Shown here: piece after piece, positions 47,783 to 49,847 of the stretch | Position numbering within the stretch: the stretch's first letter is position 1 | Layout of the letters: every line of letters starts with the position of its first letter | Assembly (NCBI GenBank): GCA_965203805.1 | Contig: OZ241917.1 | Location: forward strand, 480,001 to 544,000 | DNA: 64,000 nt | Source of the DNA: Candidatus Latescibacterota bacterium | GTDB lineage: Bacteria > Latescibacterota > UBA2968 > GCA-2709665 | Reading direction: 5' to 3' | The notes under the pieces: generated by a model | What the model was told of the DNA's origin: nothing | Database searches by the model: none | The model's input: the letters and a program-made list of their open reading frames with translations, nothing else | Position numbers and translations under genes: made by a program

Positions 47783-49219
47783 TCAGGTCAGCCCTGGAAA
47801 CAGGGGCTGGCCCTTTTTGATCTCAACCTTCGAGAAACCGGCTTCAATTCGTTCAGCCGTATCCGGAAGAAAGGGTCTGAGGACCCACGAAGTGGCGCGG
47901 ACCGAACCGACCCAGGCCGAGAGGTGTTGTTCGAGCTTCCCGGCCCTTTGCCCTTTCAGAAGTTCCCATGGGCGTACCGCGTCGATTTCACGGTTCATGT
48001 CGTCCACACGCCGCCAGACCGCCTTGAGGGCCCCGGCGAAGTCGAAACGGTCCAGCGCTTCGTTAACCTGGTGTGGAACCCGGAAGTCGGGTATCTCCGC
48101 CTGACCGTAACCGCACCGTTCGCAGAGAGATTCGAGTCGGCGCACGAGGTTGCCCAGGCCGTTCGCCAGGTCGGAGTTGTAGACCTCCCGGAGCCGCGCT
48201 TCGGAAACGTCGCCGTCCTCACCGGAACGAACGGCGCGGAGCAGGTAATATCGTACGGCGTCAGGTCCGTATCGCCGGATCAGCGGGAATGGATCCACGG
48301 CGTTGTCCAGCGACTTGCCGATCTTCCGGCCTTCCACGGTCAGATGGCCGTGGACGAAGATGGCCCGGGGCAGCGGCAGGCCGGCTGAGAGCAGCATGGC
48401 GGGCCAGTAGACGGCGTGGAATTTGAGGATGTCCTTGCCGATGACGTGGACCTTGTCAGGGCAGTCACGCCAATAGCGCTTGAATTCTCCACTGTCCCGG
48501 CCGTAGCCGAGTCCCGTGAGGTAGTTGGTCAGAGCGTCGAACCAGACGTATACGACCTGGGCCGGGTCGCCGGGCACGGGCACGCCCCATCCGCCGGACC
48601 GACTCCGATTGCGGGAGATGCTGAAGTCCCTCAGACCCTGCCTGATGAATCCCAGCGCTTCGTTTCGCCGTGTCTCCGGGAGAATGCGGAGCTTTCCGGA
48701 CGCGATCAGACCCTCCAGTTCTGCCTGATAGGCGGATAAGCGAAAGAAGTGGTTCGTTTCTTCGACGGATTCGGGTTCGACACCGTGTAGAGGGCATCGA
48801 CCGTCCGAAAGGTCCCGCTCCAACAGGAAGTCCTCGCAGCCCACGCAATAGAGCCCTCGGTACTGATTGCGGAAGATGTCCTCCTGCCGGCAGGCCGACC
48901 AGAATCGGGAGGCGCCGGTAATGTGGGTGTCCGTCGAGGAGCGGATGAAGCGGTCGTACGAGATGTCGAGGGCTTCGGCGAGGTTCTTGAAGACAGCGGC
49001 ATTCCGTTCGCACAGTTGACGCGGCGTCAGGCCTTCCCTTGCGGCGGCCTGCACGTTCTTGAACGCATTTTCGTCGGTTCCGGTCAGGAAGAACGTGTCG
49101 TGGCCCAGAAGCCGGCGCCACCTGGCGATCGCGTCGGCCTGTACCAGCTCCAGTGCGAAGCCCAGGTGGGGGCGGGCGTTGACGTAAGGGATGGAAGTCG
49201 ACACATAGAAAGTCTTCAT
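47783..49219 (-). CDS. metG: Methionine--tRNA ligase, short form with divergent signature motifs
   Basis: PYVNARPHLGF (HIGH site), FLTGTDE, YCVGCE..C..H knuckle, YVWFDALTNY, IGKDILKFHAVYWPAML, KIGKS (KMSKS site), LANGLGNLV.R, PWEL. Confidence 0.9.
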   Translation of the reverse strand: MKTFYVSTSIPYVNARPHLGFALELVQADAIARWRRLLGHDTFFLTGTDENAFKNVQAAAREGLTPRQLCERNAAVFKNLAEALDISYDRFIRSSTDTHITGASRFWSACRQEDIFRNQYRGLYCVGCEDFLLERDLSDGRCPLHGVEPESVEETNHFFRLSAYQAELEGLIASGKLRILPETRRNEALGFIRQGLRDFSISRNRSRSGGWGVPVPGDPAQVVYVWFDALTNYLTGLGYGRDSGEFKRYWRDCPDKVHVIGKDILKFHAVYWPAMLLSAGLPLPRAIFVHGHLTVEGRKIGKSLDNAVDPFPLIRRYGPDAVRYYLLRAVRSGEDGDVSEARLREVYNSDLANGLGNLVRRLESLCERCGYGQAEIPDFRVPHQVNEALDRFDFAGALKAVWRRVDDMNREIDAVRPWELLKGQRAGKLEQHLSAWVGSVRATSWVLRPFLPDTAERIEAGFSKVEIKKGQPLFPGLT

Positions 49220-49298
49220 GGCATGTCCTTTCCAATTGGGTTCCGGCTATTGAAGATGCGATGGGATTCCGCAAAGAAAGTGACATGCACATGAAAGA
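49213..49298 (-). promoter_or_regulatory. Putative SD/start-codon-sequestering helix (translational attenuator) of metG
   Basis: On the mRNA, UUCAUG-U-GCAUGUC-A-CUUUC (49295-49276) is complementary to GAAAG-GACAUGC-CAUGAA (49232-49215), which contains the SD and AUG. Confidence 0.55.
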
Positions 49299-49354
49299 GA
49301 CGCCGCCCGCACTGTGAGATATATGGCTGAACACGCTGTCTTCCTCAACAAATG

Positions 49355-49386
49355 AAACCCACCGCCGATTCATCGGCGGTGGGTTT
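49355..49386 (-). terminator. Attenuator terminator in the metG leader
   Basis: Perfect inverted repeat AAACCCACCGCCGAT-n2-ATCGGCGGTGGGTTT followed by CATTTGTT on the minus strand. Confidence 0.85.
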
Positions 49387-49414
49387 GTCGGTTCGAATCT
49401 ACGTGTGATTCAGA

Positions 49415-49573
49415 TCAGATCAGGGGATGTTTCGCCGCCGAAGTTCCGCTGGTACAGGTGGCCGGCATGTACATCGAAAGTTCGACGGCGTCCGCCTGCG
49501 TCGCGTCGTTCGGTACGGCTGAGGATCGCCGGGATATTCGCGATCCGTCATTTGAGCATTGAACAGACTTCAT
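49415..49573 (-). CDS. Putative 52-aa Met-sensing leader peptide of metG
   Basis: SD CAGGAG, 6 nt, ATG. Reads MKSVQCSNDGSRISRRSSAVPNDATQADAVELSMYMPATCTSGTSAAKHPLI* and ends 28 nt before the terminator. Below the ORF-track size cut-off. Confidence 0.7.
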   Translation of the reverse strand: MKSVQCSNDGSRISRRSSAVPNDATQADAVELSMYMPATCTSGTSAAKHPLI

Positions 49574-49600
49574 TTCAGTCTCCTGTATTCAGTACGAGAG

Positions 49601-49629
49601 AATATAGAATGCGGGCCACGAATTGTCAA
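49601..49629 (-). promoter_or_regulatory. Sigma70-like promoter of leader-metG
   Basis: TTGACA-17 bp-TATATT on the minus strand. Confidence 0.7.
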
Positions 49630-49642
49630 GCTATCCGGTTTG

Positions 49643-49682
49643 ACGCCTGCCTGCCGGCAGGCAGGGCCTCCTCAGGTTGACC
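49643..49682. repeat. Short copy of the REP-like module
   Basis: CCTGCCTGCCGGCAGGCAGG palindrome + GCCTCCTCAGGTTGAC; compare 7307-7356. Confidence 0.65.
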
Positions 49683-49847
49683 GTCAGGTCCCCGGATTTT
49701 ATCTTACCCTTGTCCTTTTCGCGGTATGGGCTTACATTGACGCAGACGGGAAGACCGGCGGCTGGCACACCGGTTGTCCGATTTCGCGCCTCTACCGGGC
49801 GTAAATTCACTCGTGTGAACACATTGTTAAGGAATAAGGGTTCGGCT

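Follow-up and report, generated by a model that had tools for sequence, protein, structure and literature searches.

We report a conserved leader upstream of a second, short methionyl-tRNA synthetase (MetRS) gene in the metagenome-assembled genome of an uncultured Candidatus Latescibacterota bacterium. We interpret this leader, with a probability of roughly 0.77, as a ribosome-mediated leader-peptide transcription attenuator that reads methionine codons and controls the auxiliary metG gene behind it. The most likely function of such an arrangement is that the spare MetRS is switched on when charged methionine tRNA is short. The leader lies at 49355..49629, on the minus strand of the window, i.e., of the whole 64,000-nucleotide stretch of DNA that was analysed.

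Organization of the metG Leader Region

The leader occupies a divergent intergenic space between metG, which starts at 49219 on the minus strand, and an MraY-like gene, which starts at 49677 on the other strand. The promoter, Shine-Dalgarno (SD) site, 52-aa ORF, segments 1 and 2 and terminator named in the original prediction were all found on the minus strand at the coordinates that it had given for them. Transcription would begin from a sigma-70-type promoter, TTGACA-17-TATATT (49601..49629), with 11 of 12 consensus matches. The SD site CAGGAG (49580..49585) is placed seven bases 5' of the ATG at 49573, which opens a leader ORF of 52 codons plus TGA (MKSVQ...SMYMP...HPLI; 49415..49573, with the TGA at 49417-49415). 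As had been stated, the only internal Met codons of this ORF are codons 34 (49474-49472) and 36 (49468-49466), which form the putative regulatory motif ATG-TAC-ATG at 49466..49474. Codon 37 (49465-49463) is CCG in this genome.

Four segments that can form alternative helices lie downstream of the promoter. Segment 1 (CGCCGTCGAA, also CGCCGUCGAA; 49481..49490, minus strand) is the 5' strand of a putative anti-antiterminator and pairs with segment 2 in predicted folds. Segment 2 (TTCGGCGGCG, also UUCGGCGGCG; 49433..49442, minus strand) coincides with codons 45-47 of the leader ORF and can have either segment 1 or segment 3 as its partner. Segment 3 (49369..49386, minus strand) comprises the terminator 5' arm (49386-49373) and the loop (49372-49369); in the predicted antiterminator, CCGCCGA at 49379-49373 pairs with UCGGCGG at 49441-49435 on the same strand, giving 8 predicted pairs in this genome. 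Segment 4 (49345..49368, minus strand) comprises the terminator 3' arm (49368-49355) and an interrupted T-tract (49354-49345). The terminator stem (49386-49355, minus strand) has 14 bp, 9 of them G-C pairs, with a 4-nt loop and the tail CATTTGTTGA. Between segment 2 and the terminator stem, the stop codon of the leader ORF is at a distance of 16 nt from the former and 31 nt from the latter.

Shuffles led us to expect 0.7 promoter-like and 1.3 terminator-like sites, and the scans yielded 2 and 1, respectively; such scans of a single sequence are by themselves weak evidence. The 257-nt leader was predicted to fold with -93.6 kcal/mol (z = -3.98), and none of 200 shuffles was equally stable. The arrangement goes beyond chance because the whole of it is conserved in 13 related genomes, as described below.

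The Downstream Gene Encodes a Second, Short MetRS

The gene downstream of the leader (47783..49219, minus strand) encodes a protein of 478 aa and is the second MetRS copy of the genome. This protein matched the NCBIfam metG domain model TIGR00398 with 410.8 bits (cut-off 336.35). The class I (M) catalytic domain is present and the C-terminal tRNA_bind domain is absent, and the closest solved structures are 2csx, 4dlp and 1a8h, which are bacterial MetRS enzymes of ~500 aa. Its class I signature reads H-L-G-F, not H-x-G-H, and its second signature KIGKS. A tie between HxGF and the presence of a leader was considered and rejected, given that 22 of 50 relatives have HxGF, 11 of them with a leader and 11 without.

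The other MetRS gene of the same genome (G000:C1:317500-318903) encodes the long type, a protein of 634 aa with tRNA_bind and Anticodon_3 domains that is 41% identical to the short one; neither a promoter-like site nor a same-strand terminator-like site was found in the 164 nt upstream of it. The metG that the original prediction named as the regulated gene is the short second copy rather than the housekeeping one. With E up to 1e-60 as the limit, a MetRS was matched in 107 of 121 genomes of the phylum (120 and this one), mostly of the long type alone and with about 40-46% identity. In this sample the short MetRS is an extra copy, present in this genus and a few other genomes. In one genus member, G011, the short metG (L004/L113; G011:C5:1245474-1246908) consists of two adjoining pieces in different frames, covering residues 1-137 and 137-478, which may be a sign of a frameshift or of a pseudogene; its leader is intact and is followed by a longer spacer.

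Conservation of the Leader Within the Genus

In BLASTN searches of 40 relatives, the leader was found in 13 of the 14 other genomes of this Latescibacterota genus, and in none of 7 genomes from other genera of the family or 19 genomes of the sister family. A covariance model was built from 14 sequences, i.e., those of this genome and the 13 genus relatives. According to the model, each of these 14 leader-bearing genomes contains a single full-length copy; elsewhere among 141 genomes of the phylum there was no strong match and just four weak ones of 26-29 bits. The sole genus member without the leader, G001, is also without the short metG and has the long MetRS only.

The 14 sequences aligned without indels from the promoter through the T-tract. 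The -35 hexamer TTGACA and the start codon were invariant, TAT[A/C]TT was aligned in 14/14, and a purine run of the GGAG/GGGA type, the letters of which vary, preceded the conserved ATG in every sequence. With an SD site and ATG in 14/14 and an open frame behind them in 13/14, the leader contains a short ORF with its own ribosome-binding site before metG. The ORF measured 52 codons in 13 sequences and 50 in that of G005, which has a late indel. A lack of conserved Met codons in orthologous leaders had been named beforehand as grounds for refuting the proposal, and the element passed this test: Met34 and Met36 were present in 14/14 sequences and Met37 in 13/14, the exception being this genome with its CCG. 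The Met block of the relatives thus reads M-x-M-M, and contigs of related strains from runs X5 and X6 carry the complement of ATG at 49463-49465, i.e., an ATG at codon 37.

Frame 0 was open across the leader in 13/14 sequences, frame +1 in 0/14 and frame +2 in 7/14. Since indels are missing from the remainder of the leader as well, their absence from the ORF is not by itself proof of coding. Mean entropy by codon position was 0.74/0.65/0.73, and since there is no third-position excess of variation, the leader peptide does not appear to be selected as a protein would be. This conservation pattern fits a translated leader with a presumably unimportant peptide, and not a functional protein. Outside the start, the conserved elements of the leader ORF were the Met block, the GCG GCG of segment 2 and His49-Pro50. 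The two GCG codons (Ala46-Ala47) were invariant in 14/14 sequences with their third positions included, a wobble invariance that points to constraint at the RNA level. Conservation was poor 5' of the Met block, where mean entropy was 0.75-0.94.

These patterns bear on whether the leader might instead be a riboswitch that binds a ligand or a tRNA (T-box-like, SAM or methionine), with the ORF being incidental. Such a reading could draw on the structured nature of the leader (z = -3.98) and on the T-box control of metG in Firmicutes. However, the start codon, the open frame and the in-frame Met codons are all conserved, whereas the region 5' of the Met block is conserved poorly. Further, no Rfam family reached its gathering score in the window, except for tRNA elsewhere in it, or at 20 orthologous loci of other phyla, and at E up to 10 the leader itself matched only hairpin families at chance level (STnc240, mir-4041). 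We consequently hold a riboswitch to be highly improbable.

The Terminator-to-metG Junction

In most relatives, metG with its ribosome-binding site directly follows the T-tract. Reading the alignment by eye, we found the metG ATG roughly 20-30 nt past the terminator stem in most of them, a distance so short that transcription of metG must pass through the terminator. In this genome, by contrast with its relatives, the terminator and metG are separated by ~119 extra bases (49239..49357, minus strand), which bring the gap to ~130 nt. This spacer is specific to the genome: the contig of a related strain from run X5 skips the stretch and has 10 other letters instead, and in G012, which is 90% identical, the spacer is absent and the ribosome-binding site of metG comes right after the T-tract. 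By BLASTN the spacer was unique in the genome, and no promoter-like site was detected in it by scanning. The T-tract of this genome is moreover interrupted (TTTCATTTGTT). With only two Met codons, an interrupted T-tract and the ~119-nt insertion, this genome's copy of the switch seems to be a derived, possibly weakened form.

The junction is also informative as to whether the leader is an independent small gene, for a 52-aa protein or a small RNA, that merely lies beside metG, the latter being expressed by leaky read-through or from a separate promoter. Promoter, ORF and terminator do make a complete unit, and the gap of about 130 nt between the terminator and metG in this genome would accommodate such a view. 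In the relatives, however, the T-tract and the metG ribosome-binding site are too close for a promoter to fit between them, and this genome's spacer has no promoter-like site. The codon-position pattern, in addition, is one without selection on the peptide, a search of NCBIfam at E up to 0.01 gave no family for the 52-aa ORF, and the leader and the short metG co-occur, with G001 having neither. An independent gene is thus quite improbable, and we retain the attenuator as the preferred reading.

Predicted Alternative RNA Structures

Global minimum-energy folds of the whole leader (230-250 nt), with the ribosome masked or not, were dominated by long-range pairs and proved uninformative, and local folds were used instead. 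The stall fold was computed on just the RNA 3' of a ribosome positioned on the Met block, as far as the terminator loop. The original prediction held that segment 2 would pair with the terminator 5' arm upon stalling, and this antiterminator was indeed predicted in the stall folds of all 14 sequences, with 8-10 pairs and -14.3 to -19.5 kcal/mol. In most of these folds, segment 2 also paired with the conserved CGGA loop.

A loss of the helices in orthologous leaders, likewise named beforehand as grounds for refutation, was not seen. In the alignment, 100% of cells were paired for the terminator (13 pairs, of which 10 never vary and one shows a compensatory change from A:U to C:G), and 96.8% for the antiterminator, i.e., the 2:3 helix (9 pairs, of which 5 never vary and one shows a compensatory change from C:G to U:A, in this genome). 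For the 1:2 helix between segments 1 and 2, in a related register, 88.8% of cells were paired and one pair was changed on both sides. A hairpin involving the Met codons, GAUGUCC/GGACAUC, was paired in 84.5% of cells, with no compensatory changes. Control partners that had been slid by 1-3 columns gave 21-67% paired cells. The terminator and a helix between the Met codons and segment 2 were both present in the RNAalifold consensus, to which covariation contributed only -0.18 kcal/mol. Given such closely related sequences, covariation is thin, and the structural case therefore rests mainly on conservation.

The cost of freeing segment 2 before segment 3 is made was predicted to be 13.5 kcal/mol in this genome, 10.6 kcal/mol in G012, 10.0 kcal/mol in G008 and 2.6-7.4 kcal/mol in the other 11 sequences. 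The 1:2 helix that had been proposed is hence strong in this genome and two relatives but weak in the remaining 11 sequences, and the modelled anti-antiterminator is not robust, being uneven across species. In the local minimum-energy fold without a ribosome, the antiterminator was retained in 9/14 sequences. In most species, then, termination probably needs a ribosome that translates through segment 2. Since untranslated RNA is predicted to favour the antiterminator in these 9 sequences, the absence of translation may mean read-through; an untranslated leader may thus behave in the opposite manner to trp superattenuation.

Proposed Mechanism

From the arrangement described above we infer that the ORF is translated and that ribosome stalling, its kinetics and a response to methionine underlie the switch. 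The conserved promoter would fire and a ribosome would translate the 52-codon leader. When Met-tRNA(Met) is ample, the ribosome would pass codons 34-37 and continue through segment 2 (codons 45-47). Segment 2 would then be covered while the 3' arm is made and would not pair with the 5' arm, such that the terminator would form and metG would be off. When charged tRNA(Met) is scarce, the ribosome would stall at the Met codons, leaving ~10 nt between its 3' edge and segment 2, and in this position would also break the hairpin that holds segment 2. Once freed, segment 2 would pair with the terminator 5' arm and loop, no terminator would form and RNA polymerase would enter metG.

Met-Run uORFs Beyond the Genus

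Orthologous short metG loci outside the genus were searched for Met-run uORFs, defined as short ORFs in which a stretch of four codons contains at least 2 Met codons, over the 300 nt preceding the gene; loci with at least 300 nt of upstream sequence were included. A Met-run uORF was detected at 31 of these 68 cross-phylum loci, which are phylogenetically non-independent, as compared with 4/68 on the reverse complement and 4/118 in each of two sets of control windows. The matches came from Actinomycetota, Gammaproteobacteria, Chloroflexota, Planctomycetota, Acidobacteriota and Dormibacterota, and several were accompanied by strong terminators.

Within the phylum, two loci from other Latescibacterota families, L112 (G016) and L114 (G127), carry unrelated Met-run uORFs (M-G-M-P-M-S-M and M-A-M-P-R-M, respectively) with strong terminators. 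A third short-metG locus, L115 (G122), is a weaker case; its uORF has a His-rich run, HHYHFHCH, and a terminal M-S-R-M, and a terminator is present. Loci L110 (G015) and L111 (G114) have a different uORF in common, without a Met run or terminator, which may reflect another mode of control. The short MetRS proteins of these two loci are 73-76% identical to that of the window, and their common ORF (…GGIG[A/D]MR…) runs into the metG start region.

We also assessed, with mixed results, how well downstream segments of the distant leaders complement the terminator arm. Five leaders did better than most shuffles: the numbers of equally good shuffles out of 300 were 3 for L112, 18 for L056, 20 for L114, 22 for L065 and 30 for L070, while three distant leaders had complementarity that did not beat most shuffles (76 for L034, 164 for L090 and 249 for L052, of 300); two loci had no Met run within the range of this test. 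Counted by eye, about 6-16 codons follow the Met run in the distant uORFs. All 10 of the leader-bearing genomes of other phyla that were examined have two MetRS genes. Among five genomes without such a uORF, three have two MetRS genes and two have one.

The findings outside the genus help to weigh a further possibility, namely that the leader is a general translation-stress sensor that is not methionine-specific, with any slowing of ribosomes on the long uORF, due to antibiotics or general starvation, freeing segment 2 and inducing metG. Leaders of the erm/cat type provide a model for this. The leader ORF, at 52 codons with merely 2-3 Met codons, is long, and termination seems to need a ribosome at segment 2, so that any upstream stall would act alike. 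Against this, the Met codons and Ala46-Ala47 (GCG GCG) are the only internal sense codons that are letter-invariant in the 14 sequences, and the invariance of the Ala pair is explained by base pairing. Moreover, the regulated gene is the cognate synthetase, and the unrelated leaders of other phyla have Met runs, and little else, in common with this one. We thus view a general stress sensor as unlikely and favour an attenuator that reads methionine codons.

Comparison With Known Attenuators

Leader-peptide attenuation is textbook knowledge for Trp, His, Leu, Thr, Phe and Ile/Val. The leader trpL has two regulatory Trp codons, and the E. coli pheM leader of pheST is a leader-peptide attenuator of a synthetase gene. 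In Firmicutes, metS/metG are controlled by a T-box that binds uncharged tRNA directly, for which translation is not needed. Synthetase attenuators were reportedly dealt with in a 2010 Russian comparative survey.

As in the trp/his/leu/thr/phe attenuators, a 1:2/2:3/3:4 layout fits this genome, and there are two or three regulatory codons. Unlike in the classical attenuators, the stop codon is situated 16 nt 3' of segment 2 here and not between segments 1 and 2. The trp-like layout put forward in the original prediction thus fits the sequence of this genome, with the correction that the long leader, with its stop 3' of segment 2, is unlike trpL. The Rfam leader families (Trp_leader, His_leader and related ones) did not match this leader. 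As with the Firmicutes metS/metG T-box, the synthetase would be induced at uncharged tRNA(Met) via a terminator/antiterminator switch; unlike the T-box, however, a translated leader is proposed here, and a T-box match was not found.

In Streptomyces, attenuators have been predicted for trpS and leuS by a study that reports no RNA element for methionine genes (PMC1262725). Leader peptides of alaS, thrS, trpS and leuS are described in S. lividans (PMC8079986). Our leader resembles pheM/pheST and these Streptomyces and S. lividans synthetase leaders in having cognate codons, a terminator and a synthetase gene, with the product made by the synthetase being sensed, according to the proposed logic, via ribosome speed. 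It differs from them in its amino acid, methionine, in the placement of segment 2 within the ORF and in its target, a second, truncated synthetase copy. Its length also differs, at 52 codons as compared with 12-22 in Streptomyces examples from that report (PMC8079986).

The same source proposes a methionine-dependent leader, 'metL' (C-M-C-R-R-M-C), before metNIQ in S. lividans TK24 (PMC8079986). It is a one-species RNA-seq annotation without comparative or functional test, and a typical Rho-independent terminator is missing according to the authors (PMC8079986). Both leaders have Met codons with spacing, those of 'metL' being spaced by one to three codons; 'metL', however, controls a transporter, metNIQ, whereas the leader described here precedes a MetRS gene (PMC8079986).

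According to the original prediction, few or no Met-leader attenuators have been characterised on a MetRS gene, and we found no description of one in full-text searches with limited coverage of subscription journals, 'metL' being the nearest item. What is new with respect to known attenuators is the methionine specificity, the unusually long leader, the ORF running through segment 2 and the spare MetRS as target. Methionine is a special case, as initiator and elongator tRNA are charged by one and the same synthetase; translation of a Met leader therefore itself depends on the signal that the leader reads.

With respect to biological function, the spare inducible MetRS might serve as a backup under starvation or in resistance to inhibitors. 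Genomes with two MetRS genes and the Met-run uORFs in several phyla point to a widespread regulatory class that is unannotated, for which a Met-run uORF before metG offers annotators a simple signature. We tentatively consider a broader scenario, which we think possible though doubtful. The short MetRS would be an inducible backup, possibly insensitive to inhibitors or suited to stress, that has spread between phyla, with a Met-codon leader acquired or kept in each lineage. The leader would report total MetRS activity. Scarcity of either charged initiator or charged elongator tRNA would induce the gene, because segment 2 is inside the ORF and the antiterminator is predicted to prevail in the untranslated RNA of most species. 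If true, such a 'default-on, translation-silenced' design would differ from the trp paradigm.

Transcript Data and Paralogue Scans

Metatranscriptome run X1, the only RNA run found, which contained 12% of the sampled words, provided contigs over 47821-48246, 48416-48449, 49510-49645 and 49641-49685, with 90-99% identity. Contigs give no information on strand, transcript ends or level, and these support nothing either way. The contig over 49510-49645 (97% identical) covers the 5' part of the leader and extends 16 nt past the -35 box on its upstream side; carried-over DNA, an antisense transcript or transcription running in from upstream could account for it.

By BLASTN, the leader matched itself alone in this genome, i.e., no paralogues were found. 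A genome scan for short frames with at least 3 Met codons in a 5-codon run followed by a terminator returned none, while a scan for MM or MxM with a terminator returned 12 frames, this leader among them. Two of the MM/MxM frames, at G000:C1 ~3895331 (+) and ~1978917 (-), have strong terminators and are followed by ORFs of 406 and 529 aa, respectively, both of which look like membrane proteins.
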